A stretch of DNA of 64,000 bases from Tepidiformaceae bacterium. GTDB taxonomy: Bacteria; Chloroflexota; Dehalococcoidia; Tepidiformales; Tepidiformaceae. The notes under the pieces were generated by a model that saw only the letters and a program-made list of their open reading frames with translations, did not search any database and was not told the origin of the DNA. The position numbers and the translations under genes were made by a program. Below are positions 5,552-22,112 of this stretch, piece after piece; position 1 is the stretch's first letter, and every line of letters begins with the position of its first letter. The stretch is from contig OZ253575.1 in the NCBI GenBank assembly GCA_965262975.1, forward strand, positions 2,530,951 through 2,594,950, read 5' to 3'.

Positions 5552-5567
5552 GGCGGCGACTGAGGCG

Positions 5568-5933: not shown

Positions 5934-5985
5934 CTGCGCGGCAGTGTAGTCCCCGCAGCGGCTGGGTTCGCTACAGTTGGGGGCG

Positions 5986-7068: not shown

Positions 7069-7092
7069 ATGGGGCGAGCATGCGGGCGGTGA
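7069..7092 (+). CDS. Candidate leaderless 7-codon uORF (MGRACGR*) coupled to the downstream gene
   Basis: ATG is 6 nt after TAGAGT. Reading: ATG GGG CGA GCA TGC GGG CGG TGA. The TGA overlaps GTG 7089 as GTGA, in frame with the DUF4177-like ORF. Confidence 0.35.
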   Translation: MGRACGR

Positions 7093-7403
7093 AGTGGGAG
7101 TACGCACTGCTGTACATCTCCGACGAGAAGCCGGCCCGGCGCTGGATTCTGTTCAGCCACGAGCAGGACGCGGCCAGCCTGGAGCGGTACTCCCCCCGCG
7201 CGACGGCCCACACCGCAACCTCCATCCACTTCAATCCGGAGAGGGTGCACACCACCTGGGTACTTGGGTCGCTGGGGGCTGAGGGCTGGGAGATGGTCGG
7301 CGTCGCCCGTGTCGACTCGCTGGAGGCGGCGTGCCTCTACCTGAAGCGGGAGCTGGACGACGACGGCAGGCAGGTGGCCGTCGTGCTGCCGCCGCGGGCC
7401 TGA
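7089..7403 (+). CDS. DUF4177-like small protein
   Basis: ORF track gives 7080..7403 (MRAVKWEY...). GTG 7089 gives MKWEYALLYISDE..., the usual DUF4177 N-terminus, and overlaps the uORF stop as GTGA. ATG 7080 remains possible. The LGAEGWEMVGV motif is typical of the family. Confidence 0.55.
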   Translation: MKWEYALLYISDEKPARRWILFSHEQDAASLERYSPRATAHTATSIHFNPERVHTTWVLGSLGAEGWEMVGVARVDSLEAACLYLKRELDDDGRQVAVVLPPRA

Positions 7404-7410
7404 GCGAAGG

Positions 7411-7785
7411 CTACCGGTTGGCGCCTTCCCCTGCCGCCACGGGCTGGGAGAGGTAGGACGTGAGGGCCGTGGCGATCAGGTAGTTGAGGGAGACACCTTC
7501 GATCTTGGCGCGCAGGGCCGCGCTGGCATGGAGCGACCGGGGTAGGCGCAGGCGGATGTCGCCCGAACGGTCGGAGCCCCAGGGCTTGGGGATGGGGTGG
7601 TCCTCGGCGAGTTCGTGGTCGATCCAGAGGCCCATCGCGACGTTCAGGTTCTCGGCCGCCTCAGCGGCGGTCTCCCCCTCACTGAACACACCGTCAAGCT
7701 CCAGCACGTGGGCCGACCAGTAACCGCTCTTGTCCGGCTGGATGATGCGGTGGTAGGGAAGCTCAAGGTAGTCAGTCGTCTGCAT
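7411..7785 (-). CDS. hicB: HicB-family antitoxin (N-terminal HicB fold + C-terminal RHH/Arc-like), no HicA partner adjacent
   Basis: 124 aa: LPYHRIIQPDKSGYWSAHVLELDGVFSEGETAAEAAENLNVAMGLWIDHELAEDHPIPKP...IRLRLPRSLHASAALRAKIEGVSLNYLIATALTSYL. It lies 35 nt downstream of the ABC ATPase gene. Confidence 0.8.
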   Translation of the reverse strand: MQTTDYLELPYHRIIQPDKSGYWSAHVLELDGVFSEGETAAEAAENLNVAMGLWIDHELAEDHPIPKPWGSDRSGDIRLRLPRSLHASAALRAKIEGVSLNYLIATALTSYLSQPVAAGEGANR

Positions 7786-7820
7786 ATCAGTGACACCGTA
7801 TGCGGTGCCAGCGAGTCGGG

Positions 7821-8714
7821 CTACTCCGGCCTCGACCAGCGGCCTTCGGGGATGTCCTCGGATGGTTCCGGCTCCTCCGGGGGTGGGGGCTCCTCGGATT
7901 CGGCGGGACGGACGCCGAAGTGGCTGGTGTCGGCGCCGATGAGGGAGGGGAGCGACTGGCTCTCCGGGCTCTCGCCCTCGGGCGCTTCGAAGGGAGTGCG
8001 TTCGCGCGACTGCACCCGGCCCCAGACGTCGCCCTTGTGGCCCGTCACGAGGCGGCCGTCCTCCAACTCCTCCACGCGGCTGGCCATCTCCATCACGAGG
8101 CGATCGTGCGTGCAGGTGATGATGGAGACGCCGCGCTCGCGGCAGATGTCGCGGATAAGGGTGAAGACGGCCGTGGCGGTGGCCGAGTCGAGCTCGCCCG
8201 TGGGCTCGTCGGCGAGCACGAGCGTGGGCTCGGTGACGAGCGCGCGGGCGATGGCGACGCGCTGCTGCTCCCCGCCGGAGAGTTCGTAGGGGCGGTGGTG
8301 GGCGCGACGCTCGAGCCCGACCAGCTCCAGCACCTCGCGGGCGCGGGCCGGTCGCGCGCGGTGTACGCCCGAGATGCGCAGGGGCAGCTCCACGTTCTCC
8401 TGGGCGGAGAGCAGGGGGAGGAGCCCGAACGACTGGAAGATGAAGCCCAGCTTCTGGCGGCGAAGGGTGATCAGCTCGGACTCGCGCATCGTGTCGACGC
8501 GCTCGCCGTCGATCTCGACCTCGCCGGAGGTGGGGCGGTCAAGCCCGGCGATAGTGTTCAGCAGGGTGGTCTTGCCCGAGCCGGAGCGCCCGATGAGGGC
8601 GAGGAACTCGCCCGGCTCGACGGAGAGGCTGACATCGCGCACGGCCCAGATCTCTTCCGAGCCGAGTTGGAAGCGGCGGGTGACGTTGCGCAGCTCGATG
8701 CGGGCGCCGGCCAT
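7821..8714 (-). CDS. ABC transporter ATP-binding protein (MacB/LolD-type NBD) with acidic Pro-rich C-terminal tail
   Basis: Walker A GRSGSGKTT, Q-loop, signature [15 protein letters not shown], Walker [14 protein letters not shown]-loop TCTHD. The ~80-aa tail reads ...ESPESQSLPSLIG...ESEEPPPPEEPEPSEDIPEG. The ATG overlaps the upstream gene's stop (ATGA). Confidence 0.93.
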   Translation of the reverse strand: MAGARIELRNVTRRFQLGSEEIWAVRDVSLSVEPGEFLALIGRSGSGKTTLLNTIAGLDRPTSGEVEIDGERVDTMRESELITLRRQKLGFIFQSFGLLPLLSAQENVELPLRISGVHRARPARAREVLELVGLERRAHHRPYELSGGEQQRVAIARALVTEPTLVLADEPTGELDSATATAVFTLIRDICRERGVSIITCTHDRLVMEMASRVEELEDGRLVTGHKGDVWGRVQSRERTPFEAPEGESPESQSLPSLIGADTSHFGVRPAESEEPPPPEEPEPSEDIPEGRWSRPE

Positions 8715-9631
8715 CAGCGTTCCTCCCCGGATACGCGGCGGACGGTGTCGGGCAGCACCTCGATGCGCCCTTCGCCAAGGAAGAGCTTGGCCCGCTCGCT
8801 GATGCTCAGCCGTTCGAGGAACTCGCGCGGCACCTGCAGGCGTCCGGCGGAATCGACGAGCACGTACTCGTCGTGCACGACCTGCGTGACGCCGCCTGCC
8901 TGCTCGACGCGGCGGAAGATCTCCATGCTCGTGCGACCGTCGCGGATGGCGACGACGCGGTTCACGCGGGAGGCGATCTCGGGGTCGTGGGTCACGATGA
9001 TGATGGTGACGCCGTAGCGCGCGTTCAGGTCGCCGAGCACCTCGTAGACGCTGTCGGCGCCGATGGCGTCGAGCTCGCCCGTGGGCTCGTCGGCGAGGAG
9101 GAGGGGCGGGCGGTTGGCGAGCGCCACGGCGATGGAGACGCGCTGCTGCTCGCCGCCCGAGAGTTGCTCGGGGTGGTGGTCGCGGCGATTGCCGAGGCTC
9201 ACGGCGTCGAGCAGCTCGTTGGAGCGCTCGCGCGCGGCGCCTGCCTCCACGCCATCAAGCATGAGCGGCAGCTCAACGTTCTGGGTGGCCGTGAGGTAGG
9301 GGATGAGGTTGCGGCCCGTCTGCTGCCAGATGAAGCCGACGGAGCTGCGGCGGTAGCGAACCATCTCGCCCTCGGTCATGGTCAACAGGTCGCGCCCGCC
9401 AACGAAGGCGCGTCCGGCGCTGGGCTGGTCGAGCCCGGCGAGGATGTTGAGCAGGGTGCTCTTGCCCGAGCCGGAGGCCCCGACGATGGCCATCAACTCG
9501 CCCGCGCGCACCTTCAGGTCGAGCCCGCGGAGGGCGACGACCTCGAGCTCGTCGCTCTTGTGAATCTTGAAGAGATCCTCGCAGACGATGTACGGGGGCG
9601 CTCCGGTCTCGGTGTTGGGGAAGGTTGTCAT
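8714..9631 (-). CDS. ABC transporter ATP-binding protein with AbrB/SpoVT-like C-terminal extension
   Basis: Only the last 305 aa of ORF 8714..11428 are real; ATG at 9631 verified. Sequence: [24 protein letters not shown]...[12 protein letters not shown]...[15 protein letters not shown]...[12 protein letters not shown]...IVTHD. The tail ...[38 protein letters not shown] resembles a swapped-hairpin AbrB-type motif (inference). Confidence 0.92.
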
Positions 9632-9639
9632 GGGGTGTC

Positions 9640-12600
9640 CTAGAGCTCGCCGATGCGCAGGGCGCGATGCAGGGCCAGCCGCGAGTAGAGGCGCGCAAGG
9701 GCGGCCACGGTGGCGATGAAGACGAGGGCGAGCAGGCCGTAAACGGAGAGCACGGTCTCCCAGCTTACCTGCGAAAGGAGGGGTGGGACCACGTCGCTGC
9801 CGTCCTCGGTGAGGGCGATGGCGCCGATCATGAGGCGTCCGAGGGGGAATCCGAGGGCTGTACCGGCGGCCACGCCCGCGATGATCACGAAGAGTTGCTC
9901 GAATCCGACCACCCCCACGATCTGGCGTCCGGAGAAGCCCATCGTGCGGAGGATGGCGAATTCCAGCGAGCGCGTCTGCGCCGCCAGGTAGGAGAAGACG
10001 ATGAAGCCGAGGGCCGTGAGCAGCAGCACCGCCCCGAAGGAGAGGAAGAGGATTCCCTCCCAGCTGGCGGCGATCAGCGGGTCGGAGGATTCGATCGCGA
10101 AGATGGCGGCGCCGTCGTAGACCTCGCGGGCGCGGAAGCCTTGCTCCTCCAGCCACTCGTCCGTGAGCTCTATCCCCTCGACACTTCCCAGCCACACCTC
10201 GTTCACGGCGATGCCGCCGGCCACCCGCGGGATGCCCGCACCGGCGTCCCGGAGGGCGGCGAGATCGGCGACGAGCAGGTGGTCGCGCGGGCCCGGGTAG
10301 AAGCCGGGGAAGAGCTTGAAGGCGCCGGTGATCTTCACCTTGAGCAGCTGGCGGTTTACGCGTACGGGGATGGTGTCGCCGGGGCTGGCCTCGATTGCCT
10401 CCAGGAACGACTCGCTGGCAAGCACGCGCAGCGGTGCGGGCGAGCGGCGCAGGCGCAGTCCCACCGCGGTTACGGAGAAGCTGTCGTAGTTGAAGGAGAT
10501 CTGGACGGCGTAGCGCCCGCGGTCGTTGTCGATGTCGGCGCGCGTGACGGTCGTCTCGGCGGCCCCGGAGGCGCCCGTGATGGACTGGTAGCGGTCGAGC
10601 GATTCGAACGGCTCGATCACGACGGCGTCGGCGGCCCCCCCACCCTCGGGGTAGGCGACAATGTCGTCGACCAGGGCGGTGACGCGTCCGGGGGCGGCGG
10701 CGAAGCGGCGCACGCTGAGGAAGACGGACTCGATTTCCAGCGTCGAATCGAGATCGGGCGGGCGGTCGCGGGGGTTGAAGGGGCGGGTGAGGTCGACGAC
10801 ATAGAGGAGCCAGCCGTCGTCTTCCTCGACCGGGTCGCTCACGAACAGGTACTCGAAGTGGAGGCCGTTCTCGTCGCGCAGGCGAATGCCGGGGCGGGCG
10901 GCGCGGTCGGGCAGGGAGATGCGCGTCCAGAGGCCGAGGGCGCGCGAGCCGGGGGGCACAATGGCGCCGTCGGGCAGGTCCGCGTCCTCGTCGGGCTGAA
11001 GGCTGGCGAGGAGCGAGTCGAGGTCGCCAAAGTCGTCCCGCCAGAAGGCGACCTCGGCGAAGTCTTCGCTCACGCCGAGGAGCTCCGCGGGGGTGGAGCG
11101 CCCGGTGAAGGGGGCGTAGGACACCTCGATGCGGGCGGCCGCGCTGGCGCGGTCGAGCCCGTCGATCGATTCGATGGACTCCTCCAGCCGCTCGGCGGAG
11201 AGGCGCGAAGGCTCGCGGATGTCGACGAGGCGGCCGGGAGCGCCGGCCTCGTAGGCGGCGCGGTCCTCGAAACTGCGGTCGAGCGTGGCGCGGAATCCGG
11301 CGGCGAACATGCCCACGGAGGTTGCCAGGAGGAGCAGCAGGATGAGGCGGCTGTAGTGGAGCGGGCTTCGCACCATGCGCCAGAGGCCGAGCAGGATGGT
11401 GGCCCCGCTCAGGCCCCGCAGCGCCCATGAGGCGACCGCCAGAACGACCGGGAACAGCCGCAGGAAGACGAGCGCGATCATCAGCATGAAGAGCGCGGGC
11501 GAGACCAGCAGGAGCGGGTCGGCGGAGAGGTCGCCGAAGAGGTTCTCGGTTACGAGCGAGCCCCGCTGGCGTAGCTGGTAGAAGAGAAAGGCGCCCACGG
11601 CCACGAGCACGAGGTCGAGGTAGTAGCGCAGGAAGAGCGGCTGCCTGGTGGGCCGGGCGAGGCTCTGCTTGAAGTGAACCATGCTCGCTTCGGAGGCGCG
11701 GTAAGCGGGCCAGAGCAGCGCGACCAGCGCGAGCAGCGCTCCGAGGGCGGCCAAGCCGAACGCCTCGGCGGTGAGCGTCACCTGCAGCAGCTCACCTTGG
11801 CTGAGGTCGGAGAAGGGGGGCGTCGGGCCCAGCAGGCGGATGACGCCCGAGGCCAGCAGCGGCCCGAGGACCACCGCGAAGATGGTGAGCACCGAGCCCT
11901 CGATCAGGTAGACGGTCATGATCTGGCCGAGGCCCGCCCCGCGGCTCTTCAGGAGCGCGATCTCGCCCGCCTGGCGCTCGACCAACATCGTCGCCACCAG
12001 CACCAGGTAGTAGAGCGCGATGCCGACGATGAGCAGCATGAGCGCGAAGAGCGGAAGCCGCGTGAAGAACAGCTTCTCCTGGTACTCGGCGATGACGTCC
12101 ACCAGCTCCGTGTCGAGCGACGACAGCTCCAGCTGCGCGCGGATCTCGCGTTCGAGCGCACGCAGGTTGCGCTCCACCGTCTCGGCGTTGCGGCTGTTGA
12201 CGCGCTCGCGGTCGATGAAGGCGTAGGTCTCGAAGGTGCCGTCGATGGAGGGGAGGTAGGGGGCCAGTACCTCCACGAAGGTGCGCTCGTCGATGACGAA
12301 GGGGAAGGTGGGCCAGCGCGTGCCGTCGACCACGAGGCGGTAGGCGTTGCCGAACCAGTAGTCCTCGGTGGGGTCGGAGGGCTCGAACAGTCCGGCGACG
12401 GTGACTTCGACGGGGTCGACATCGTCGCGCCAGAAGGGGTGGAGGTCGAAGGTGTCGCCCACGCTGATGCCGAGCTGGCGGGCGGCGGTGGCGGCGATCC
12501 AGACTTCGATGCTGGGCCGCAGGGAGGGGTCGGTGGTGGGAGGAGAGGCGGCTGCGGGGCCGCCCTCGACGAGCGTTACGTGGGCGCCGATGTCGGAGAA

Positions 12601-12999
12601 GAAGAGGAAGTGGGCGCGGGCGCGCAGTTCGTCGTCGTCGTCGATGGGCACGCCGGGCTCGGCCAGGAAGAAGGTGGAGGAGCGCGCGTAGACGCCCGTG
12701 TCCTCGATGAGGCTCCCGGCGTAGCGCTGCAAGAGCGTGAAGGTAGCCTCGCGGCGCTCCTTGTAGATGTCGGTCTCGCCAGGCTGGCTGTTACTGATGA
12801 CCTTGAGGTCGAGCTCGAGGGGTTCCTGCTGGCGGAGGGTGAAGCTGAGGCCGAGGTCGCGCACGGCGTCGGAGTAGAGGATGACGCTCGACATGAGGGC
12901 GGAGGCGAGGACCATGCCGAAGATGACGGTGACGAGCAGCCGCCAGTTCGCGAGGCTCCGCTGGGCGACGATGCGCAGGAGGGAGGCAAAGCTGTTCAT
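9640..12999 (-). CDS. Very large ABC transporter permease with two FtsX-type modules (1119 aa)
   Basis: N-terminal TM (LLVTVIFGMVLASALMSSVILY), then large extracytoplasmic regions. There are two FtsX-like 3-4 helix bundles, with EIALLKSRGAGLGQIM and EFAILRTMGFSGRQIV motifs. It sits directly upstream of two NBD genes. Confidence 0.88.
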   Translation of the reverse strand: MNSFASLLRIVAQRSLANWRLLVTVIFGMVLASALMSSVILYSDAVRDLGLSFTLRQQEPLELDLKVISNSQPGETDIYKERREATFTLLQRYAGSLIEDTGVYARSSTFFLAEPGVPIDDDDELRARAHFLFFSDIGAHVTLVEGGPAAASPPTTDPSLRPSIEVWIAATAARQLGISVGDTFDLHPFWRDDVDPVEVTVAGLFEPSDPTEDYWFGNAYRLVVDGTRWPTFPFVIDERTFVEVLAPYLPSIDGTFETYAFIDRERVNSRNAETVERNLRALEREIRAQLELSSLDTELVDVIAEYQEKLFFTRLPLFALMLLIVGIALYYLVLVATMLVERQAGEIALLKSRGAGLGQIMTVYLIEGSVLTIFAVVLGPLLASGVIRLLGPTPPFSDLSQGELLQVTLTAEAFGLAALGALLALVALLWPAYRASEASMVHFKQSLARPTRQPLFLRYYLDLVLVAVGAFLFYQLRQRGSLVTENLFGDLSADPLLLVSPALFMLMIALVFLRLFPVVLAVASWALRGLSGATILLGLWRMVRSPLHYSRLILLLLLATSVGMFAAGFRATLDRSFEDRAAYEAGAPGRLVDIREPSRLSAERLEESIESIDGLDRASAAARIEVSYAPFTGRSTPAELLGVSEDFAEVAFWRDDFGDLDSLLASLQPDEDADLPDGAIVPPGSRALGLWTRISLPDRAARPGIRLRDENGLHFEYLFVSDPVEEDDGWLLYVVDLTRPFNPRDRPPDLDSTLEIESVFLSVRRFAAAPGRVTALVDDIVAYPEGGGAADAVVIEPFESLDRYQSITGASGAAETTVTRADIDNDRGRYAVQISFNYDSFSVTAVGLRLRRSPAPLRVLASESFLEAIEASPGDTIPVRVNRQLLKVKITGAFKLFPGFYPGPRDHLLVADLAALRDAGAGIPRVAGGIAVNEVWLGSVEGIELTDEWLEEQGFRAREVYDGAAIFAIESSDPLIAASWEGILFLSFGAVLLLTALGFIVFSYLAAQTRSLEFAILRTMGFSGRQIVGVVGFEQLFVIIAGVAAGTALGFPLGRLMIGAIALTEDGSDVVPPLLSQVSWETVLSVYGLLALVFIATVAALARLYSRLALHRALRIGEL

Positions 13000-13033
13000 G
13001 AAGCGTCAGGGAAGCGTACAGGAGAGCGCCGTG

Positions 13034-13681
13034 TCATGACTCTCTGCGCGGGGCTGCGGGTCGCACGCGGGCGACGCTGTAGTCGGTTGGGTCGCGGACG
13101 GACTCGTAGTCCGTGAGCTCCAGGCGGTGGCACCAGGTGGAGGGTCTTCGTAGTCGGAGTTCGCTGCCCTTGCCGCTCGACAACCACGCGGCGGTTTCGG
13201 CGCGTTCGCGCCCAAAACGGGTGGCGACGAACTCGAGGGCCGGGAGCAGGTCGGTGTCGGTCGAACAGATGATGCCGGTGTCGTAGGCGCCGTCGATGGC
13301 GCCCGCGACGAAGTCGATTGCGAGCTGCACGTCGATCCCCTTCTCCTCGGCGCGCTGTTCAGGCCAGCGTCGCGGGTACCGCAGGGGGCGGGTGATGACG
13401 ACCGCGCCGGACTGCTCCCAGGCGTGGCACTGGCGTCTATGTGCTCCGTAGGTCTTTGGATCCCTGGTGGCATCTGGTCGACCCGAGTAGACGCGCACTT
13501 GTTCAAGGACGCGGGGCTCGGAGGCAGGGTGGTAGGGGTTCTCGCGACCACAGAGAAGCCTCCCGAGTTCAACTGGGGCGATCTGGCCTACTCGGCGATG
13601 GGACCTGCTCGTCTGGGAGAAGGCACGGGCCCCTTGGTAGACGTTCTGGGCGTCAACGAAGACCGCGACTCGATTGACCAT
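13034..13681 (-). CDS. NYN-domain (LabA/DUF88-like, PIN-fold) putative RNase
   Basis: 215 aa: MVNRVAVFVDAQNVYQGAR...EKGIDVQLAIDFVAGAIDGAYDTGIICSTDTDLLPALEFV. These are the conserved acidic residues of the NYN/LabA fold. No SD; the start codon lies 6 nt after a U-tract. Confidence 0.8.
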   Translation of the reverse strand: MVNRVAVFVDAQNVYQGARAFSQTSRSHRRVGQIAPVELGRLLCGRENPYHPASEPRVLEQVRVYSGRPDATRDPKTYGAHRRQCHAWEQSGAVVITRPLRYPRRWPEQRAEEKGIDVQLAIDFVAGAIDGAYDTGIICSTDTDLLPALEFVATRFGRERAETAAWLSSGKGSELRLRRPSTWCHRLELTDYESVRDPTDYSVARVRPAAPRRES

Positions 13682-13686
13682 CGGCT

Positions 13687-13786
13687 CAAGAAAAACCCCC
13701 GCCAGTGCGCCACAAGTGACGGACGACGGGGAACATTCACCCTAACGGGCACTACCCAGTGTGTGCTGCCGTCCAGCATTTGTCAA
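13687..13786 (-). repeat. Module 1: TTGACA box, 28 nt, then a 66-nt hairpin/U-tract unit abutting the NYN start (candidate leader/sRNA with intrinsic terminator)
   Basis: Minus strand: TTGACA (13786-13781), 28 nt, then GUGCCCGUUAGGGUGAAUGUUCCCCGUCGUCCGUCACUUGUGGCGCACUGGCGGGGGUUUUUCUUG (13752-13687). CCCCGUCG pairs with UGGCGGGG and is followed by UUUUUCUU. It is a direct repeat of module 2. Confidence 0.75.
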
Positions 13787-13885
13787 GGGCATAAGTTGGT
13801 CTCCCGAGAAGTAAACGAACGACGGGCGCTCGGGCGGCATGAGGAGCCTGCGAAGCCGCCCAGCGAAAGAACGAGGGGGTGTGGA

Positions 13886-13986
13886 CAAGAAAAACCCTCG
13901 CCAGTGCGCCAGCAAATAGAGAACGACGGGGAACAGTGGCCCTATCGGGCGCCCCCCTTCTCTGGTCTCGCTGGAGACGGTGTCAA
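13886..13986 (-). repeat. Module 2: TTGACA box, 28 nt, then a 67-nt hairpin/U-tract unit, 200 bp upstream of module 1
   Basis: Minus strand: TTGACA (13986-13981), 28 nt, then GCGCCCGAUAGGGCCACUGUUCCCCGUCGUUCUCUAUUUGCUGGCGCACUGGCGAGGGUUUUUCUUG (13952-13886). The stem arms and 5' end are conserved with module 1, while the apical loop and the 28-nt spacer are diverged. Confidence 0.75.
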
Positions 13987-14046
13987 CGCCACGCGTCGTA
14001 GGTGGGGGAGCGCTTGAGGGGCGGAGACCGCTACCCTTGTGCGGCT

Positions 14047-17000
14047 ATGCGGGGCTTGGCCGTTCTCTGGGGGTTGCTGCTGCGCCACGGCGCGGCCAGC
14101 TGGCGAATGCTGGCTGTGCTGGCGCTGGGCGTGCTCGTGGCCTCGACGCTGCTGGCGAGTGCGCCCATCTACGCGCGCGCCATGGCCGACCTCGGGCTCA
14201 AGTTCACCGTTCGCGATGAGCTGCGCGACGAGCCCTCCATCCGTGTCGGCATTGAGGCGCAGCAGCTCGCCACACCCGACTCGCTTGCGGCCCGTGCGGC
14301 GGTCGAGAACCGCATCGACGAGCGGCTCGGCTGGTTCGCGCTTGATCGCTCCATGGTGGTCGAGTCGGCGCGCCTCACCGTCGGGACGACGGGCGCGGAG
14401 CCACGGGCGGGCACCGCTCTGGCCGTGCTCTACGCGGTCGAGGGTTTCGAGCAGCATGTCCTGGTGCAGGAGGGGCGCCTGCCCCTTCCCACCGGTCCCG
14501 ACGGCCCCGTGGAGGTGGTGATGGGCGCCCGCGCGGCGGCGGTCGCGCGGCTGGACCTGGGTGACGAATTCCTGCTGATCGAGGAGTTCGACAATTGCGA
14601 CCGCATCATCCCGGCGGGGCTACAGCCGCAGTTGCCCTGCGACCTGAAGGTGCTCGTGCGCTACTCCATGCCCGCGGTGCTCACGGGCATCATCGCGATC
14701 GAAGACGCGGACAGCTCCTTCTGGTCGGCGGCCAGCGACCGCTATGTGCAGCCGGCCGCGCCGATTGCGGACTCGGGGCTCGTCTCGCCCATGGTGGCGC
14801 ACCTTGATGCCGTGCTGGGTGACGTGGCCGTGCGCTACCCGGGCCAGCGCCTGAGACTGCGCTGGAACGTCCTCGCCGATATTGACCAGCTCGACCAGGG
14901 CAACTTCCAGCGGGCGCGGGCGGACATGCTCGACCTCAACCAGGACCTGCGCGTCTACAACGGCTATGCCATCAGCCCGCTCGCGGTCACGCTCGATGCG
15001 TTCGGCCGGAGCGCCGACTTCCAGCGTGCGCCCCTCACCATCCTGCTCGTGCAGATCGCGGCGATCGCGCTCTTTTACGTGGCCCTCATCTCCGTGGCGG
15101 TGGTGGAGCGCCAGGGCGAGCAGATCGCCCTGCTGCGCGGTCGCGGGTCGAGTACGAGCCAGATCGTCGCCCTCTACGCGCTCGAGGGGCTGGCCCTGGC
15201 GCTGCCGGCCATTCTCGTGGCGCCCTTCATCGCGGGGGGCGTGACGGCCCTGCTCGGGTTCACGCCCGTGTTCAACGACATCTCCGGTGGCGACCTGCTG
15301 CCGGTCTCCTTTGAGCCGCTCGCCTTCCCCCTGGCCGCGCTCGGGGCCCTGCTCTCGATCGTGGCGCTGACGGCGCCTGCCTTCGTGGTGGCGCGCCGAG
15401 GGCCGCAGGGACAGCGGCGGGCGCTGGCGCGTCCCGCAGCCAGCCTCATCCAGCGCTACTACCTCGACGTGGTGCTGGTCGGGTTCGCCCTGCTGGCCCT
15501 GTGGGAGCTGAACGAGCGCAACTCGGTCTACACGCCCTCCTCCACGGGCGGCGTCTCGAGCGACCCGCTGCTGCTCGCCTCGCCAGCGCTCATCATCGCG
15601 GCGTCGGCGGCCGTGCTGGCGCGTCTCTACCCGATCGTGCTGCGGGTGATCGTGCGGGTGGCGGGTCGCGTGGTCGGGGTGGCCGTGGCGATGGGGCTGT
15701 GGCAGCTGGTGCGCCGACCGGGACCGTACACGCAACTCGCCCTGCTCCTGATGATGGCCGTGGCCGTGGGCATGTTCGCGGCCAGCTACACGAGCACCAC
15801 CGAGCGCTCCTACGAGGATCGCGCCCGCTTCGCCGCGGGCGTGGAGCTGCGCGCGGGCGCCTCCGATGCCACCTTCCTGCCCTCCGACCCCGCGAGACTG
15901 GAGGCCGAGCTGGAGGCGGTCGAGGGTGTGGAGAATGCCTCGGCCGTCATGCGCCTGGAGGGCGAGATCGCCACGCCCAACAGCGCCGGTCCGGAGGTGG
16001 CCGTGCTTGCGGTGTCGGAAGAGGCAGGCGACCTGCTCTGGTGGCGCGAGGACTTCGCCGAGCGCACGCTCGACGCCATCCTCGACCGCGTCGACAGCGG
16101 CGACATCCTGAGGGGCGTGCCCATCCCGCCCGCCGCGGCAGAACTCTCTGTATGGGTGAATCCGGAGTTGCAGCGCACCACCGTAACGGTGTGGGCGCGC
16201 GTGCGCGATGCCACCGGCCGGCACCACCTGCTGCCCTTCGGCAAGCTCGACTTCCGCGGTTGGCGCGAGTTGCGCGCTCCTATCGAGAGCCGCGGCTTCC
16301 GCCCGCTGGAGGAGCCGCTCTCGCTGATCGCGCTCATCCTCACGGAGCCCGCGAACCAGTTCAACGCGAGCGAAGACCCCGTGTATATCGACGATCTCTC
16401 GTCGGTGGATCCGGATGGCTCCCTCAACCTGCTGGAGGGCTTCGAAGGGATCGTGCGCTGGGAGGCGATCCCGAGCGCCGCGCGGTCGACGGACAGCCTG
16501 CAGCTGAGCCGCGATGAGGCGCACTCGGGCTCGCAGGCGGCGCGGCTCGAGTTCCGGCGCGGCACCACGGGCGAGCGGCGCGGGCTCTTCCCCGCCGATC
16601 GCGGCATTCCCCTGCCCGTCCTCGCCAGCGAGGCCTTCCTGGAGGAGAACAGCCTGGTGGTCGGCAGCGAGGACCTGCTCGAGATCGATAATCTCATCGT
16701 GCCCTTCGTTGTGCGCGGGGTGTACGAACGCTTCCCCACGCTGCCAACGCTCGACGGCCCCTCGGTGGTGCTGAACCGCGACCAGCTGCTGCGCTGGGGG
16801 TACATGGTGAGCACCACGCCGGGCGACCTCTCGCGACCGAACGAGGCGTGGCTCGACCTGGCCCCCGGGGCCGACCGCGAGCTCCTGACGGAGGCGCTCG
16901 AAGGGTTTGGTCTGCGGCGCGTGGTCGACCAGGAAGCGACACTCGCCTCGGTACGCTCGAACCCGCTCATCGCCGCCAGTGGCACGGGCATCCTCTCCAT

Positions 17001-17397
17001 CTCGTTCGTCGCGACGATGGCGCTTGTGGCGGTGGCGCTGCTGGTCTCGCTCTGGATGGCGCTGCAGCGGCGGCGGGTGGAGTTCGCGGTGCTGGGGGCG
17101 ATCGGGCTGACGCGCCGCCAGGTGATGGGCGTGCTCGGTCTGGAGTACGCCATCGTGGGGGTGGTGGGCGTGGCCGCGGGCGTGCTCGTGGGGCAGTTCG
17201 TGGGGCGGCGCATGCTCTCCTTCCTCGACGTGACGGAGGCGGGCCTGCCCGTCGAACCGGGGTTCGTGCTGCAGACGGACTGGACGTTCGTGGTGGTGGG
17301 CGCGGCCGTGGTGGCGGTTGTCTTTGCCATCGCCCTCATCGGCGCCGTGCGGGCGATGGCGCGCACGTCCGATGCGGCCGCCCTCCGCACGGAGTAG
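14047..17397 (+). CDS. Second very large FtsX-type ABC permease (about 1116 aa), divergent from the NYN-ABC operon
   Basis: ORF 14002..17397. ATG 14047 gives MRGLAVLWGLLLRHGAASWRMLAVLALGVLVASTLLASAPIYARAM, the same N-terminal design as the 9640..12999 product. FtsX-like motifs: QIALLRGRGSSTSQIV and EFAVLGAIGLTRRQVM. Confidence 0.88.
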   Translation: MRGLAVLWGLLLRHGAASWRMLAVLALGVLVASTLLASAPIYARAMADLGLKFTVRDELRDEPSIRVGIEAQQLATPDSLAARAAVENRIDERLGWFALDRSMVVESARLTVGTTGAEPRAGTALAVLYAVEGFEQHVLVQEGRLPLPTGPDGPVEVVMGARAAAVARLDLGDEFLLIEEFDNCDRIIPAGLQPQLPCDLKVLVRYSMPAVLTGIIAIEDADSSFWSAASDRYVQPAAPIADSGLVSPMVAHLDAVLGDVAVRYPGQRLRLRWNVLADIDQLDQGNFQRARADMLDLNQDLRVYNGYAISPLAVTLDAFGRSADFQRAPLTILLVQIAAIALFYVALISVAVVERQGEQIALLRGRGSSTSQIVALYALEGLALALPAILVAPFIAGGVTALLGFTPVFNDISGGDLLPVSFEPLAFPLAALGALLSIVALTAPAFVVARRGPQGQRRALARPAASLIQRYYLDVVLVGFALLALWELNERNSVYTPSSTGGVSSDPLLLASPALIIAASAAVLARLYPIVLRVIVRVAGRVVGVAVAMGLWQLVRRPGPYTQLALLLMMAVAVGMFAASYTSTTERSYEDRARFAAGVELRAGASDATFLPSDPARLEAELEAVEGVENASAVMRLEGEIATPNSAGPEVAVLAVSEEAGDLLWWREDFAERTLDAILDRVDSGDILRGVPIPPAAAELSVWVNPELQRTTVTVWARVRDATGRHHLLPFGKLDFRGWRELRAPIESRGFRPLEEPLSLIALILTEPANQFNASEDPVYIDDLSSVDPDGSLNLLEGFEGIVRWEAIPSAARSTDSLQLSRDEAHSGSQAARLEFRRGTTGERRGLFPADRGIPLPVLASEAFLEENSLVVGSEDLLEIDNLIVPFVVRGVYERFPTLPTLDGPSVVLNRDQLLRWGYMVSTTPGDLSRPNEAWLDLAPGADRELLTEALEGFGLRRVVDQEATLASVRSNPLIAASGTGILSISFVATMALVAVALLVSLWMALQRRRVEFAVLGAIGLTRRQVMGVLGLEYAIVGVVGVAAGVLVGQFVGRRMLSFLDVTEAGLPVEPGFVLQTDWTFVVVGAAVVAVVFAIALIGAVRAMARTSDAAALRTE

Positions 17398-17483
17398 GAG
17401 AGCGCTTCGCTGTCGCCGCTGAGTGGAGCGCTCGGCGCTGCGCGCGGCTGAGTTGGGGCGCAGAGCAATTTCTCGAAACGGAC

Positions 17484-17513
17484 GGGGTAATTCGAGGGTT
17501 TGGGCTCTAGGGT
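17484..17513 (+). promoter_or_regulatory. Conserved promoter-like box GGGGTAATTC-N14-TAGGGT (copy 2 of 5)
   Basis: GGGGTAATTC gagggtttgggctc TAGGGT, then 6 nt (gagccc) to ATG 17520, implying a leaderless mRNA. Confidence 0.55.
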
Positions 17514-17519
17514 GAGCCC

Positions 17520-18830
17520 ATGATGCGTCGGGCTCGTGCCTGTCTCCCGTTGTTCGCCTTCGTCGCTTCCCTCGCAGCGATGGCGTGCGGCGGCGAGACG
17601 ATCCCTCCCGCCCGCGAGTCCGGCGCATCAGCCCCCACCGCTACTTCGGCCACCCTGGCGGCGGAGCCGACGCGGACGGCCACTCCGACCGCTGTGCTCA
17701 CTGCCACACCCAGCCCCAGCGCCTCGCCCACGCCGACGCCGCCGACCGCCACCGCGACGCCCACGCCCGAACCGACGCCGGGGCGGACGGCCACTCCGAC
17801 CCCCTCGCCCGCGGCCAGGCCCACACCTGATCCGACTCCGGCCGCCACGGCCACACCGATATCTGCGGTGACGCCGACGCCCGAACTGACGCCTGAGCCG
17901 CCAGCCATCGAATACACGCCACTCACGTTCGGGGAGTCCCGTGCGCTGCCTGCGGGGACGACGCTCCATGTCCGGGAGTACTTCGGCTGCCATGGACCTC
18001 AGAATTGGCTCAGGGGAGTCGCCACGGACGAGGGCGAACTGCTGTGGGATTACCCGCTTACCGAACTGCCTCGGAACGACGACGCGGAGTGGGGGGACCG
18101 GGACCTGGTTGGTGTGAGTGCGAGCGGCCAAACCCTTGCGGCCTGGGTCTGCGAGCGGGGAGTGTGCAGGTCTCTCGGCGGCGTTGTGAGTGAGGATGAC
18201 GTCTCCTCGCTCTGGGTCTCGGGCGATGGAGGCGAGACGTGGGAGAGGTGGGGTGAGTTTCCGGAGGGGTGGATTTCGGTCGTCACCGACGACGATGTAG
18301 CCGTCTATTCGGACGATCCTCAACATCGGGCATGGTGGTTCCGCTCAGGGGAAGAAGTGTTGCCTCCAGAGGATCTTCTGAACCCACGCATCTGGGGGTG
18401 GCGAGCGGTCGGAGACCGCACCGAGTCCATCTGGGGAGACAGCGAGGGCACGGTCCTTGTGTCCACTTCTGGCGAGAGTCTTCCCCCCAGGCCTCAGGGC
18501 TTCGGCAGCGTGGCTACCCTGGCTGATGGGTCCATCCTCTGGAGCAGGGTCGAGCCCCGGAGCCGGGGGGAACGGGACCTGTTCCTGCACATGAACGACC
18601 AGGGCACAGGTTTGGCGGCGTATTCGTGGGAGGGCCCGAGGCCCCTGGTGCTCATCGACCAGTTGGACGAGGACTGGTACCTGTTTGTGGGGTTCCTTGG
18701 AGGTTCCTCATGTGGAGCGGTGGGCAGGACGGTGCTCGTGGACTTCAGCACGGGTACGGTGCACACGATCCCCGGGCTCGACGACAGGGCGCGCTTCGTT
18801 CCCTACGCCGCCCGGCCCGCGCCCGACTAG
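17520..18830 (+). CDS. Secreted/lipid-anchored protein with Pro/Thr-rich linker and uncharacterised C-terminal domain
   Basis: 436 aa. Signal peptide MMRRARACLPLFAFVASLAAMAC-GG, then ~110 aa of PT-rich linker (TPSPSASPTPTPPTATATPTPEPTP...). The following W/D-rich globular region (LWVSGDGGETWERWGEFPEGW...) matches no family I recognise. Confidence 0.75.
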   Translation: MMRRARACLPLFAFVASLAAMACGGETIPPARESGASAPTATSATLAAEPTRTATPTAVLTATPSPSASPTPTPPTATATPTPEPTPGRTATPTPSPAARPTPDPTPAATATPISAVTPTPELTPEPPAIEYTPLTFGESRALPAGTTLHVREYFGCHGPQNWLRGVATDEGELLWDYPLTELPRNDDAEWGDRDLVGVSASGQTLAAWVCERGVCRSLGGVVSEDDVSSLWVSGDGGETWERWGEFPEGWISVVTDDDVAVYSDDPQHRAWWFRSGEEVLPPEDLLNPRIWGWRAVGDRTESIWGDSEGTVLVSTSGESLPPRPQGFGSVATLADGSILWSRVEPRSRGERDLFLHMNDQGTGLAAYSWEGPRPLVLIDQLDEDWYLFVGFLGGSSCGAVGRTVLVDFSTGTVHTIPGLDDRARFVPYAARPAPD

Positions 18831-19549
18831 CGGGCGCCCGGGGGGGCGACGAGGACGGCCTGGGCGCTGGCGGGGCTGGCGCCGGCGGGGGCGCGCGTGG
18901 CGATGCGGTCGCCGCCGGTGATGGGAGCGTCGTAGGGCTCGAGGAAGAAGAGGGACACGCCCGCGAAGAGCTGCACGGTGATGGGTCCGTCGGGACCGCT
19001 GAGGGTGATGTCGGCGCCGCCTTCAGTCGCGCCGGGGGTGACGCTCTCCACCCGGCCCCAGAGAACGGGGCGGTGGTTCGGGTTGCTCAGGAGCTCCAGA
19101 CCGGTGAAGCCCGCCGCCGAGCGCGCGAGTCCGTCGGCGAGGGGGGCGCCCGGCTCGCGGATGACGATGACCTGGCGGATGACGTAATTGCGCACGGGGT
19201 CGCCTTCGCCGGTGAACGTGAGCCACTGGCCGCGCTCGATGCCGGAGGGCAGTCCGGGCACGAGCGCCTCGAGCACGACGCCTGGGGGGAGGGCGACGGT
19301 GAGCGGCTCCCCCTCGGTGTTGGCAGACAGGAGCGTGAGCGTCGCGCCGTTGATCTCGCGCACGTCGAAGACGGCGGCGGGGCGGGCCGGCTGGGGCGTC
19401 ACGAACGGCCCCGCCTCCGGGGGCGCGTCGCTGCCGGCCGATTGCGAGACGATGAAGGCCACGGCCCCACCCCCGACTAGCAGCGCCAGCACAACGACGA
19501 TCGCGGCCACGGGCGCGAGCAGCCGCCGTCGCAAGGGGGCAGGCGGCAT
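18827..19549 (-). CDS. Membrane-anchored hypothetical protein
   Basis: ORF 18827..19666. ATG 19549 (verified) gives MPPAPLRRRLLAPVAAIVVVLALLVGGGAVAFIV (signal anchor), followed by an extracytoplasmic domain of unknown family. Confidence 0.6.
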   Translation of the reverse strand: MPPAPLRRRLLAPVAAIVVVLALLVGGGAVAFIVSQSAGSDAPPEAGPFVTPQPARPAAVFDVREINGATLTLLSANTEGEPLTVALPPGVVLEALVPGLPSGIERGQWLTFTGEGDPVRNYVIRQVIVIREPGAPLADGLARSAAGFTGLELLSNPNHRPVLWGRVESVTPGATEGGADITLSGPDGPITVQLFAGVSLFFLEPYDAPITGGDRIATRAPAGASPASAQAVLVAPPGAR

Positions 19550-19621
19550 CAGGGGCTCTTCGATAGCCACGCGCCCATGATAGATGGCGCGCGGCGCGGA
19601 TGGCGGGACCGGGGGGGGGAT

Positions 19622-19651
19622 GGCGTAATTCGGGGCTTCCCCTGTTAGGGT
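19622..19651 (+). promoter_or_regulatory. Conserved promoter-like box GGCGTAATTC-N14-TAGGGT (copy 3 of 5)
   Basis: GGCGTAATTC ggggcttcccctgt TAGGGT, then 6 nt (cgcgcc) to GTG 19658. Confidence 0.55.
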
Positions 19652-19657
19652 CGCGCC

Positions 19658-19681
19658 GTGACACACAGGGGCGTCCTGTGA
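19658..19681 (+). CDS. Candidate leaderless 7-codon uORF (MTHRGVL*) coupled by GUGA to NHL paralogue 1
   Basis: GTG ACA CAC AGG GGC GTC CTG TGA. The TGA overlaps the main-ORF GTG 19678. A CACAGG-ggcgt-CCTGTG hairpin spans the uORF and contains the main start codon. Confidence 0.4.
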   Translation: MTHRGVL

Positions 19682-22035
19682 GGAAGCTGATCGTCGCCGC
19701 GCTGGCCGCGCTGCTCGGCGTGGTGGTGCTGGCGGTAGGCGCCGCCCAGGGGAGTGTGACGGCCAACGTCGAGGTGCGCGTCTGGCAGAACGTCCGGGAC
19801 GACCTCGACATCAGCATCAGCGCCCGTCCCCAGGGTGGCTCGTGGCGGACCCTGGGGGCGGTGGATCTGCCGCTCGACGACGGCGTCAGCGCAACGGGGT
19901 CCCGCTACGGCGACATCGCGCTCGACGTTCCCCTCCGAACCGGGGGTTCTGTAGCCACCATTGAGGTGCGCGTCTGGCAGAACGTCGGGAACCCCAGGCT
20001 CATCTACATCAGCGCCCGGCACGCGGGAGGCTTGTGGAGCACGCTCGGCACTGTCCGCATGCCGATGGACGAGATCAGCCTCGCGGGCCGCTTCCGCTTT
20101 AGCGACATCACCCTCGAGGTTCCGCTTCCCGAGGGGGAGGTCACGACGCTCGTTGGGCGCCAGGGCTTCTGGGGGTACCAGGATGGCAGCGGTACAGCCG
20201 TGCTCTTCGGGGGCAGGGCCGGGGCCGCCCGGATTGTCGAGTTGGCGGCCCACCCCGACGGCCGGGTCATCATTTCGGACAGGTTCAGTAACGCGATTCG
20301 CGAGCTCTCGACCGATGGCGTGGTCACGACGATCGCGGGCGGCATTGGCTATGGGGACGACGATGGCCCCGGCTCAGTCGCGCAGTTCAGCGGGCCCGAC
20401 GATCTCGCCGTCGATGCCGACGGGAACATCTACGTAGCCGACCGGGGCAACGAATTGATCCGCAAGATCACGCCCGATGGCGCCGTGTCCACGATTGCGG
20501 GAGGTGGGCAGGGGGTCGGCGGGGGCCCTGCCCTGGAAGCGGACCTCGACCAGCCGCGCGGGGTTGCGCTCGATGGCTCGGGGAACCTGTACATCCTGGA
20601 GAAGCATCGAATCTTGCTCCTCTCGCCGGAAGGCCTCCTCTCGACGGTCGCGGGAGGAGGGGGGCAGGAACAGGTTGATGGCCCGAGTGAGCGGGCTCAG
20701 TTCGCCCACCTGCATGACATCGACGTGGACGACGCCGGCAACCTCTACGTGATCGACATCGACGATGGGGCGAATACCGAGTCCGCATCAATCCGCAAGG
20801 TCGATGCGAACGGCACGGTCAGCACCCTTCTCTTCAGCAAGCCTCCGAGCCTTGGCGGCCTGCTGGCCTATCCGAACGGTCTTGCGGTAGCGGGCGACGG
20901 GACCGTGTTCGTGGCGAACTCGGGGCGCCACCAGATCGTGAGGCTGACTGCCGAGGGAGAGCTGCGGGGGATCGCCGGAACGGGCGCGGAGGGTTCAGCC
21001 GATGGGCCCGCGGGGACGGCCACGTTCTACCGGCCGAAGTCGCTCGACATCATGCCGGATGGTTCGCTCGTCGTGTTCGACCAGGACGGCACCGTCATTC
21101 GCCGGATCACGCCTGCCGAGGAGGGGTTCCCGCTCGGCACTGTTGCCCTCGCGGAAGGTGAGCAGACCCCGCGGATCGAGGGCGTGGCGGTGAGCGCCTT
21201 TGCCCGCAGCCCGTTCCTCCTCCCAATTGACCTGGCCCGCACCGAAGATGGCTCCATCTTCGTCGGCGACAACAATGATGGCGTCTGGCGGGTCACACCG
21301 GGTAGAAGGTTCGTCGCCCTGGCGGGCGAGAACGGGATGGGCTTCAGCGACGGTCCCGCGGATGAGGCCGAGTTCAGCTCGCCAGAAGGGATCGTCGTCG
21401 ATGGCGACGGCAACATCCTGCTGGCCGACTACGGGAACCGGGCTATCCGCCAGATCGCGCCCGACGGCGCCGTCACGACGGTCCACACGTTCGGGAAGAA
21501 CCCCCATCTGCTGGACTACGACAGCGACGGCAACCTCCTGGTTCTCCTCCGTGGCGGGATTGGCGGGGACGAGATCGTGCGCTTCAGCCCCGACGGCGCC
21601 AGGTCGACGGTCGCCACGCCCCGGTTCGACGCCATCTCGGGCATGGGCGTGAGCCCCGACGGTGAGCTCTGGCTCATAGGCACGGACTACCTGTCCGGCA
21701 CGACGATCGTGAGGCGTGCGAGTAATGGCGACTTCACGACCGTGCTCGAGAGTGGCACGGGCCGGTACGGAGGCCTGTTCTCCATCCAGGTGCGAGGCGT
21801 CGACTTCTCGCCCGACGGCATGGCCTACGTGACGGACTCCAAGTACGGACGCATCCTCAGGATCGCTCCCGACGGCACCGTAGCGACGGTGCTCGACCGG
21901 GAGCAGTTCGGCGGTTCCGCTGACTTCACGCCGCGGGGGCTCGTGGTCACCTCAAGTGGCCTTCTGTTCGTTACCAGCGGAGGGTTCCACCCCTCGCAGG
22001 GTACGGTCTGGCAGATCACGCTCCCGGACGAGTAG
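19678..22035 (+). CDS. Secreted protein: 2x 'VRVWQ' N-terminal module + NHL-repeat beta-propellers (paralogue 1)
   Basis: ORF 19600..22035. GTG 19678 gives the signal peptide MRKLIVAALAALLGVVVLAVGAAQG. Modules: VEVRVWQNVRDDLDISISARPQGGSWRTLGAVDLPLDDGVSATGSRYGDIALDVPL and IEVRVWQNVGNPRLIYISARHAGGLWSTLGTVRMPMDE... About 12 NHL-type repeats follow, e.g. PDDLAVDADGNIYVADRGNELIRKITPDGAVSTIAGG. Confidence 0.85.
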   Translation: MRKLIVAALAALLGVVVLAVGAAQGSVTANVEVRVWQNVRDDLDISISARPQGGSWRTLGAVDLPLDDGVSATGSRYGDIALDVPLRTGGSVATIEVRVWQNVGNPRLIYISARHAGGLWSTLGTVRMPMDEISLAGRFRFSDITLEVPLPEGEVTTLVGRQGFWGYQDGSGTAVLFGGRAGAARIVELAAHPDGRVIISDRFSNAIRELSTDGVVTTIAGGIGYGDDDGPGSVAQFSGPDDLAVDADGNIYVADRGNELIRKITPDGAVSTIAGGGQGVGGGPALEADLDQPRGVALDGSGNLYILEKHRILLLSPEGLLSTVAGGGGQEQVDGPSERAQFAHLHDIDVDDAGNLYVIDIDDGANTESASIRKVDANGTVSTLLFSKPPSLGGLLAYPNGLAVAGDGTVFVANSGRHQIVRLTAEGELRGIAGTGAEGSADGPAGTATFYRPKSLDIMPDGSLVVFDQDGTVIRRITPAEEGFPLGTVALAEGEQTPRIEGVAVSAFARSPFLLPIDLARTEDGSIFVGDNNDGVWRVTPGRRFVALAGENGMGFSDGPADEAEFSSPEGIVVDGDGNILLADYGNRAIRQIAPDGAVTTVHTFGKNPHLLDYDSDGNLLVLLRGGIGGDEIVRFSPDGARSTVATPRFDAISGMGVSPDGELWLIGTDYLSGTTIVRRASNGDFTTVLESGTGRYGGLFSIQVRGVDFSPDGMAYVTDSKYGRILRIAPDGTVATVLDREQFGGSADFTPRGLVVTSSGLLFVTSGGFHPSQGTVWQITLPDE

Positions 22036-22051
22036 CGCTTCGGAGGTGGGT

Positions 22052-22081
22052 GGGGTAATGCCGATGCTCGTCTGCTAGGGT
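22052..22081 (+). promoter_or_regulatory. Conserved promoter-like box GGGGTAATGC-N14-TAGGGT (copy 4 of 5)
   Basis: GGGGTAATGC cgatgctcgtctgc TAGGGT, then 7 nt (cgcgccc) to GTG 22089. Confidence 0.55.
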
Positions 22082-22088
22082 CGCGCCC

Positions 22089-22112
22089 GTGACACATGGG
22101 GGCGCCCTGTGA
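22089..22112 (+). CDS. Candidate leaderless 7-codon uORF (MTHGGAL*) coupled by GUGA to NHL paralogue 2
   Basis: GTG ACA CAT GGG GGC GCC CTG TGA. The TGA overlaps the main-ORF GTG 22109. Same length and position as the 19658 uORF, and a CACA(U)GGG/CCCUGUG hairpin is retained. Confidence 0.4.
   Translation: MTHGGAL

Follow-up and report, generated by a model that had tools for sequence, protein, structure and literature searches.

How does a ribosome reach the start of a gene when the first start codon on the predicted messenger RNA (mRNA) opens a different and very short reading frame? The question is raised by three genes in a stretch of 64,000 nucleotides (nt) from a Tepidiformaceae bacterium (GenBank assembly GCA_965262975.1, contig OZ253575.1, positions 2,530,951 to 2,594,950 of the forward strand), referred to here as the window, which has a G+C content of about 69% and whose NHL-repeat proteins are most closely related to proteins of Tepidiformaceae (Chloroflexota) metagenome-assembled genomes (MAGs). 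Each gene is preceded by a promoter-like box and by a small open reading frame (mini-ORF) of seven sense codons, the TGA of which overlaps the start codon of the gene. This RTGA-coupled layout recurs in related genomes with unrelated peptides, but it flips to an in-frame state in close relatives, has lengths of 7, 8 or 10 codons, and occurs on leaders that are apparently shared among paralogues by gene conversion.

Three mini-ORFs end on the start codon of a downstream gene

Direct reading and a script both recovered the three mini-ORFs of the initial annotation, all on the forward strand and all predicted to be 5'-terminal. The first (7069–7092; ATG GGG CGA GCA TGC GGG CGG TGA) encodes MGRACGR and has its TGA at 7090–7092, within a GTGA at 7089–7092. 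The second (19658–19681; GTG ACA CAC AGG GGC GTC CTG TGA) encodes VTHRGVL, with the TGA at 19679–19681 and the GTGA at 19678–19681, and the third (22089–22112; GTG ACA CAT GGG GGC GCC CTG TGA) encodes VTHGGAL, with the TGA at 22110–22112 and the GTGA at 22109–22112. As proposed, the GTG inside each GTGA is in frame with the main ORF (7089, 19678 and 22109), and each lies 20 nt from the first start codon of its mini-ORF.

The main ORF behind the first mini-ORF (7089–7403, forward strand) is a small gene of 104 amino acids. It had been labelled DUF4177-like, a label that we drop, as no Pfam family matches it at E<=1; 10 homologues were found, none with a Pfam domain. The other two mini-ORFs precede tandem genes for secreted NHL-repeat proteins, both on the forward strand: paralogue 1 (19678–22035, 785 amino acids, beginning MRKLIVAAL) and paralogue 2 (22109–24595, 828 amino acids including a stop-loss tail). 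The main N-termini had been judged sensible throughout. This holds for paralogue 2, in which GTG 22109 is the first possible start past an upstream stop, and less well for the small gene, in which an in-frame ATG at 7080 (107 amino acids) competes with GTG 7089 and is preferred by several gene callers; orthologues of the small gene begin either MR(A/P)VKWEY or MKWEY. The frame of GTG 19678 is open back to ATG 19600, and a start there would put the promoter-like box inside the ORF. A start further downstream in paralogue 2, past the AGGAGG that follows GTG 22109, was considered and rejected, there being no usable start codon at a suitable distance.

Taken within the window alone, the coincidence is a modest one; two of the three mini-ORFs belong to recent paralogues with near-identical leaders, and an out-of-frame start 20 nt upstream needs only an A after the main start codon to give an NTGA ending, A being the first base of 18% of codons. 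The weight of the evidence comes from relatives. About a dozen Tepidiformaceae assemblies yielded orthologous loci in a genome scan and contig look-ups; these were compared as loci of +/-10 kb, labelled L001 and so forth.

A promoter-like box precedes each leader

Searching for GGGTAAT-N16-TAGGGT with up to two mismatches gave five matches in the window, all on the forward strand (7034, 17485, 19623, 22053 and 24463), against 0.22 expected from shuffled sequences; none of 100 shuffles reached five. The box of the small gene (7034–7062), GGGTAAT-N16-TAGAGT, has one mismatch and is kept in L022 and L109. That of paralogue 1 (19623–19651) also has one mismatch, and the boxes of paralogue 2 (22053–22081) and paralogue 3 (24463–24491), as well as a further box of the in-frame type (17485–17513), have none. 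An ATG or GTG stands 6–7 nt 3' of each of the five, the gap from the 3' hexamer being 6 nt from TAGAGT to 7069, 6 nt from TAGGGT to 19658 and 7 nt from TAGGGT to 22089. At the remaining two boxes this leaderless-type start codon (17520 and 24498) is in frame with a long ORF, in agreement with the initial annotation.

The box is retained upstream of the same genes in related Tepidiformaceae, and the form (G)GGGTAATTC-N14-TAGGGT is common to the window and to L001–L005, L010, L012, L022, L023 and L104–L106. The set of genes that carry this lineage-conserved box is small (tandem secreted NHL-repeat proteins, a lipoprotein and a small protein), and the box may mark the regulon of a sigma factor or transcription factor. 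Its upstream half is unlike TTGACA. In high-GC bacteria, a recognised mark of leaderless genes is a TANNNT with its first T about 12 nt upstream of the start codon (PMC3160421), and the arrangement at the boxes fits this signature. Across the window 24 of 147 TANNNT hexamers have an ATG or GTG at a gap of 6–7 nt, against 5.6% expected by composition. The boxes behave like promoters of leaderless mRNAs.

If the box were not a promoter, or if the transcription start site (TSS) lay elsewhere, the ATG or GTG would be internal to a longer 5' untranslated region or to an extended ORF such as that from ATG 19600, and there would be no leaderless mini-ORF as such. We consider this unlikely. It would suit the lack of an E. 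coli-type -35 element, the failure of a consensus scan to call the box, and the open frame of paralogue 1, but it sits poorly with a two-element box whose spacer varies in sequence and is fixed in length, with a TANNNT-to-start distance that is invariant over five gene families and corresponds to the leaderless signature, and with the lack of any upstream start for 22109 and 24498. The intergenic gaps are about 90–130 nt, and several further genes look leaderless, among them the two that diverge from boxes 7034 and 19623, with TACACT, 6 nt and ATG at 6937 and TATCAT, 6 nt and GTG at 19570, both on the reverse strand. Each of these intergenic regions would thus carry two back-to-back leaderless promoters.

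The coupled layout recurs in related genomes

Counted as unique combinations of box and leader (n=38), 37 have an ATG or GTG at a gap of 6–7 nt, for which composition predicts 5.6%. This start codon is in frame with the gene in 19; it opens a 7-codon ORF with an NTGA overlap in 13, an 8-codon ORF with an NTGA overlap in two, and a 10-codon ORF with a 13-nt overlap with the main start in three. The 18 unique out-of-frame leaders are therefore divided between 4-nt stop/start overlaps (15) and 13-nt overlaps (3). The 8-codon versions (L022 and L109) belong to the small gene, and a 3-nt insertion in them keeps both the frame and the GTGA junction; the 10-codon versions are in L001, L002 and L104.

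The comparison of orthologous loci that the initial annotation had suggested shows the stop/start junction in 15 leaders but does not support a length fixed at exactly seven codons, since 8- and 10-codon forms exist, three leaders have the 13-nt overlap, and the closest orthologue of the 19658 case is in frame. The divergence of the peptides is upheld: the mini-ORF and its NTGA junction recur in relatives with unrelated sequences (VTHRGVL, VTLGGVL, VTHGGAL, MPRRGGA, MLRGGGA, MLSGELS, VVSGRPHCAD, MGRACGR and MWRIACGR).

The out-of-frame sequences are found in independent assemblies. L010 and L011 have exactly the 22089 leader of the window, as do the long-read assemblies L104 (36x) and L105 (60x), and the 19658 leader is identical in L104 and differs in L105 by two substitutions that leave the frame unchanged. 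L005, whose contig name is MEGAHIT-style, has two 7-codon upstream ORFs (uORFs); L005, L010 and L011 are taken as short-read assemblies by inference from their contig names. We therefore reject assembly error as the origin of the three uORFs in the window, identical or frame-preserving sequences being present in short-read-style and 36–60x long-read assemblies. Some related long-read MAGs do have broken ORFs and very low coverage (2x, 6x).

At L104:3525–7534 the orthologue of NHL paralogue 1 is interrupted by a DDE transposase gene (4896–6221, reverse strand), and its promoter and 7-codon mini-ORF are identical to those of the window. The only box with no start codon at a gap of 6–7 nt is at L109:4044–4100, where a 20-nt leader with GAGAGGGGG is followed by ATG; this would be a leadered version of the same promoter, of the Shine-Dalgarno (SD) type, to be read with caution on a contig of 2x coverage. 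A metagenome scan with an alignment of the NHL family returned only distant NHL-domain proteins of unrelated organisms, none with the box, and served as a negative control for the box pattern.

Leaders switch between in-frame and out-of-frame states

The in-frame and mini-ORF states differ by insertions or deletions (indels) of 1 or 4 nt in runs of G, and each leader type has a sister sequence in the other state. In type A (19658), L010 and L011 read CGGGGGGC where the window reads CAGGGGC, with one G more, and this puts the GTG in frame to give MTHGGRPVRKL...; these two independent assemblies hold the closest orthologue of the 19658 case, with 95% protein identity. In type C (24498), the window, L001 and L104 share an in-frame leader with one base more than the leader of L003, L004 and L005, which contains a 7-codon uORF, and the uORF versions have GTG where the in-frame versions have GCG. 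The start region of NHL paralogue 3, which had been read as a mini-ORF turned into the beginning of a signal peptide, does correspond, in frame, to the uORF of these three loci. In type D, L106 has four extra Gs and is in frame, and L001, L002 and L104 have the 10-codon uORF.

Full-length protein might in principle be made from the 5'-terminal codon, either because the assemblies miss a G or because the ribosome or RNA polymerase slips on the G run. The frame difference is always at a G run, and every leader type has its in-frame sister, as this would predict; we nevertheless regard it as highly improbable, since the same out-of-frame sequence is present in independent assemblies, some with short-read-style contig names and some long-read at 36–60x, the G runs are short (4–5), and every case has an internal start that is functional and leads into a proper signal peptide. 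Programmed -1 frameshifting or G-run slippage was likewise rejected, as no slippery heptamer and no downstream stimulator were found.

Leaders also appear to be exchanged between genes. A neighbour-joining tree of the mature N-terminal domains places tandem paralogues that carry near-identical leaders within one genome in different protein clades. Paralogues of only about 47% identity are nearly identical over promoter, leader and start of the signal peptide (window 19618–19710 against 22048–22141; L003:1672–1765 against L003:4094–4187). This suggests that the promoter, leader and signal peptide are copied or homogenised as a unit, apparently by gene conversion. A 7-codon extension with GTG-A directly after it moreover becomes, on losing one base at any point, automatically a 7-codon ORF ending in GTGA. 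Much of the conserved mini-ORF length is, judging from these leaders, a matter of common descent or gene conversion.

Some features of the out-of-frame leaders suggest constraint. In all 18 the frame used meets its stop at +4 or +13 nt with respect to the main start. None of them has the remaining frame, in which the ORF would run 74–581 nt into the gene; stops occur off-frame at densities of 2.4% and 1.0% per codon. Every one of the 18 also keeps the 5'-terminal start codon. This includes the leader at L004:9900, in which 10 of 24 positions (counted by eye) are changed relative to its orthologues, yet the ATG, the seven codons and the GTGA are kept. The codon after the internal GTG always starts with A, and is one of the rare codons AGG, AGA, AAA or AGC; AGR makes up 7.9% of Arg codons, and AAA 6 of 184 Lys codons. 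The choice of frame, the retention of the start codon, the A-initial codon and the 3-nt insertion are suggestive of constraint, not decisive.

Possible routes to the internal start codon

Two sequence features near the internal start could influence its use. One is an SD-like tract. In the paralogue 1 leader a GGGG (19668–19671, forward strand), which is also the site of the frame-switching indel, lies 6 nt before GTG 19678, and in the paralogue 2 leader a GGGGG (22098–22102, forward strand) lies 6 nt before GTG 22109 and pairs at -8.4 kcal/mol with an assumed canonical anti-SD. Most NHL leaders have such a G-rich tract 5–10 nt upstream of the internal start, with pairing energies between -5.0 and -9.9 kcal/mol; the background has its median at -2.6, and 15% of its windows are at -6 or lower. 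The small gene (7089) and L004:9900 score weakly, at -2.8 to -2.9.

The other is a hairpin, which the initial annotation proposed to hide the main GUG until translation of the mini-ORF unmasks it; in such a model the geometry would also fix the length at seven codons. A hairpin of 6–7 bp that pairs the main GUG is indeed predicted in both NHL leaders (19658, -8.7 kcal/mol; 22089, -9.0 kcal/mol), and the two differ by wobble-compatible changes. These hairpins are, however, no more stable than shuffled sequence (z -1.2 and -0.5), and nothing comparable was found in the 7069, L004 or 10-codon-type leaders. Over six distinct sequences no pair changes on both sides, two have a change (to G-U) in a single arm, and one is broken in L105, so that the supposed compensating changes are one-sided wobble rather than the covariation expected of a conserved helix sequestering the main start. 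The in-frame L010 allele retains the hairpin although it has no uORF, and the 8- and 10-codon lengths do not fit a fixed geometry. Unmasking of a hairpin is accordingly a very unlikely account of the coupling.

The explanation that we favour, with about even confidence, combines leaderless promoters with termination and reinitiation at the mini-ORF, the mini-ORF being a tolerated by-product of frame breaks. Transcription would start on the A or G of the ATG or GTG 6–7 nt past the TANNNT -10 element, and the 5'-terminal codon would be either a real start, adding a few residues ahead of the signal peptide, or the start of an out-of-frame mini-ORF. A 1- or 4-nt indel in the G run would put this codon out of frame and create a mini-ORF of 7–10 codons; the only variants seen are those with the stop of the mini-ORF either on the internal start (GUGA) or shortly past it (CUGA, 13-nt overlap). 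Most likely, 70S ribosomes would load at the 5'-terminal codon, translate the mini-ORF as far as its UGA and, after terminating there, reinitiate at the overlapping GUG, AUG or UUG, with the G-rich SD-like tract within the mini-ORF probably assisting the restart. The anatomy of the leaders, its recurrence and the flipping between states are observed, and the TSS, the translation of the mini-ORF and the reinitiation are inferred, the last being plausible; translation of the mini-ORF has the support of analogy, as the same module of promoter and start codon would drive the in-frame genes at 17520 and 24498. The peptide would have no role, and the mini-ORF would deliver ribosomes as a by-product rather than act as a dedicated sensor. 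The leaders lack the features of peptide- or amino-acid-sensing leaders, such as attenuators or the Cys-rich leaderless small ORFs of mycobacteria, as their peptides are unrelated, they are only 20–23 nt long, and an Rfam scan of 6800–27200 found no RNA family. The mini-ORF layout seems to arise whenever a small indel breaks the frame of a short N-terminal extension.

Several points weigh against this explanation. The 5' end of the mRNA is placed by the -10-like hexamer only, and a scan for E. coli sigma-70 consensus promoters made no call at the window boxes, so that the promoter assignment rests on the TANNNT and leaderless logic. Because leaders are shared among paralogues, the independent frame breaks are few, perhaps 4–6. 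With flipping as rapid as this, each mini-ORF may be young, and retention of its start codon need not mean selection. Codon 3 is also often AGG, where the stop does not need it, so that rare AGR codons are not stop-specific; as proof of selection for UGA, the AGR and AAA codons after the GTG are weakened accordingly. The anti-SD was the canonical sequence, assumed rather than read from this genome. The SD-like tract could on its own account for translation of the main ORF, and SD-led initiation on a 20-nt leader is a serious rival, or a helper, to reinitiation, as Shell et al. also discussed for the couplings in mycobacteria.

The last point leads to a different interpretation, in which the mini-ORF is a neutral relic of a frameshift in an N-terminal extension and 30S subunits reach the main ORF independently, by binding to the SD-like tract; translation from the 5'-terminal codon would then be irrelevant or, as a ribosome there would cover the SD, mildly inhibitory. 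This is possible, and we hold it tentatively as a less probable account than reinitiation. SD-like tracts of -5 to -9.9 kcal/mol do precede most internal starts, and both states coexist in near-identical strains, which implies that both work and that the switch is cheap. The constant 20-nt offset follows automatically from a 1-base deletion in a 7-codon extension ending in GTG-A, and the leaders of the paralogues are shared by descent or conversion. A relic would not be expected, on the other hand, to keep its 5'-terminal start in 18 of 18 out-of-frame leaders, one of them strongly diverged, or to show only the frame that stops at once, and the SD scores at the 7089 gene and the L004 leader are weak. 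In mycobacteria a 5'-terminal ATG or GTG suffices for initiation (PMC4633059), so that the mini-ORF would be translated regardless.

Under a more speculative extension of the reinitiation explanation, the G-run indels in the first 20 nt would be a recurrent, heritable switch of each secreted NHL-repeat gene between direct leaderless initiation, with an N-terminal extension, and coupled reinitiation, the two differing in level or conditions of expression; conversion would spread one state or the other among tandem paralogues, and RTGA uORFs in general would derive from frame-broken extensions and be kept as a tuning device. We consider this rather doubtful.

Relationship to known coupled leaders

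The layout is already known from mycobacteria. Leaderless transcripts of M. tuberculosis and M. smegmatis carry unannotated small ORFs (sORFs) that end in an RTGA shared with the annotated start, over-represented at p<0.0003 (Shell et al. 2015, PLoS Genet, PMC4633059); their architecture is conserved and the peptide is not, and ribosome delivery was proposed, possibly helped by an embedded SD (PMC4633059). The leaders described here are like them in having an ATG or GTG at the predicted 5' end and a TGA that shares two bases with an RTG start, an arrangement found in the three window mini-ORFs and in 15 unique leaders with the same junction in relatives. In sequence terms the window case matches what defines the mycobacterial class. 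It differs in being from the Chloroflexota and in being known from sequence alone; its mini-ORFs are also tied to one promoter box and one neighbourhood, and their in-frame ancestors or descendants are visible in sister genomes. New here are the phylum, the link to one promoter box and to one neighbourhood of genes for secreted proteins, and an interconversion with in-frame N-terminal extensions that can be seen in the sequences.

In M. tuberculosis, translated uORFs, some of them leaderless (89 were reported), frequently overlap the annotated ORF at a NUGA (D'Halluin et al. 2023, bioRxiv 10.1101/2022.06.01.494293). More than half of the downstream ORFs are without a canonical SD, termination and reinitiation by 70S ribosomes was proposed, and the uORFs were linked to Rho-dependent premature termination (bioRxiv 10.1101/2022.06.01.494293). 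The window mini-ORFs resemble these NUGA/URRUG uORFs in their 4-nt overlap with the downstream ORF, whereas nothing in the present loci bears on transcription termination and the leaders are only 20–23 nt.

In gene pairs that are coupled by termination and reinitiation (Huber et al. 2019, Nat Commun; reviewed in PMC12548453), a NUGA-type overlap is the restart site, and the stop/start overlap or proximity that such pairs have is present in our leaders; the same type of junction joins NHL paralogues 3 and 4 at 27044. Unlike in those pairs, the upstream partner here is a 7–10-codon ORF with no protein function, and dependence of the downstream gene on it is only predicted. Among the functions that a 2025 review names as proposed for coupling is the delivery of ribosomes by uORFs. 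In E. coli, 5'-terminal AUGs on SD-leadered mRNAs bind 70S ribosomes and express the uORF, with variable effects downstream (Beck, Fleming & Janssen 2016, PMC4965119). The window leaders are similar in placing a start codon at the predicted 5' end of an SD-bearing mRNA, but the E. coli uORFs are not generally coupled by stop and start, and E. coli initiates only weakly on leaderless mRNAs.

Should the mini-ORFs be translated and supply the main start with ribosomes, the range of the coupled leaderless sORF layout would widen from the Actinobacteria to the Chloroflexota, for which hardly any translation data exist. The loci are also an unusually clean natural experiment, as for each leader type sister genomes have in-frame, 7–8-codon GUGA or 10-codon overlapping versions. 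They suggest that such uORFs originate when an indel breaks the frame of a short N-terminal extension in a leaderless gene, and that they survive only if the new frame stops at an internal start. They also carry a warning for annotation, as the starts of leaderless genes in high-GC genomes can shift by one base without killing the gene.

In-frame genes and other observations

The gene at 17520–18830 (forward strand) encodes a putative lipoprotein of 436 amino acids, with an in-frame, leaderless-type ATG 6 nt after the -10 element, a layout found in all relatives. A frameshift in this gene was suspected from a 750-amino-acid homologue and rejected, as the protein is simply shorter. NHL paralogue 3 (24498–27047, forward strand) likewise begins at a leaderless-type ATG in frame, and its first eight codons correspond to the uORF of L003, L004 and L005. 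ATG 24498 is its only sensible start, and the same is true of the box-linked codon in the 17520 family. NHL paralogue 4 (27044–29524, forward strand) has no box, and its GTG lies over the TGA of paralogue 3 in a GTGA stop/start overlap. Codons 1–10 of paralogue 4 (27044–27076) are an in-frame remnant of a leader of the 10-codon type, the promoter of which is retained in L104 and L001.

The stop codon of NHL paralogue 2 has been lost in the window (24445–24595), where the TAG of L104 is GAG and there is in addition a 6-nt deletion. The ORF is extended by 48 codons through box 24463, and has a 98-nt out-of-frame overlap with paralogue 3.

The small-gene leader has a second element of interest. 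In L022 (9995–10012) and L108 (2996–3012) a TAGCAT is followed 6–7 nt later by a GTG, just before the GTG of the small gene, and the window (7076–7091) has a decayed form, GAGCAT, of the TAGCAT seen in relatives. There is no box at all in L021 and L023, which have TAGCAT, 5 nt and an in-frame ATG instead. The TAGCAT inside the small-gene mini-ORF looks like a second, possibly ancestral, leaderless promoter.

Elsewhere in the window, at 3498–3515, a TACGAT is followed by GTG TGG GAA TGA, a 3-codon ORF whose TGA overlaps an ATG, with a second in-frame GTG two bases after that ATG. It lies upstream of the 3335–5551 ORF, and may be a further 5'-terminal ORF or a product of chance.

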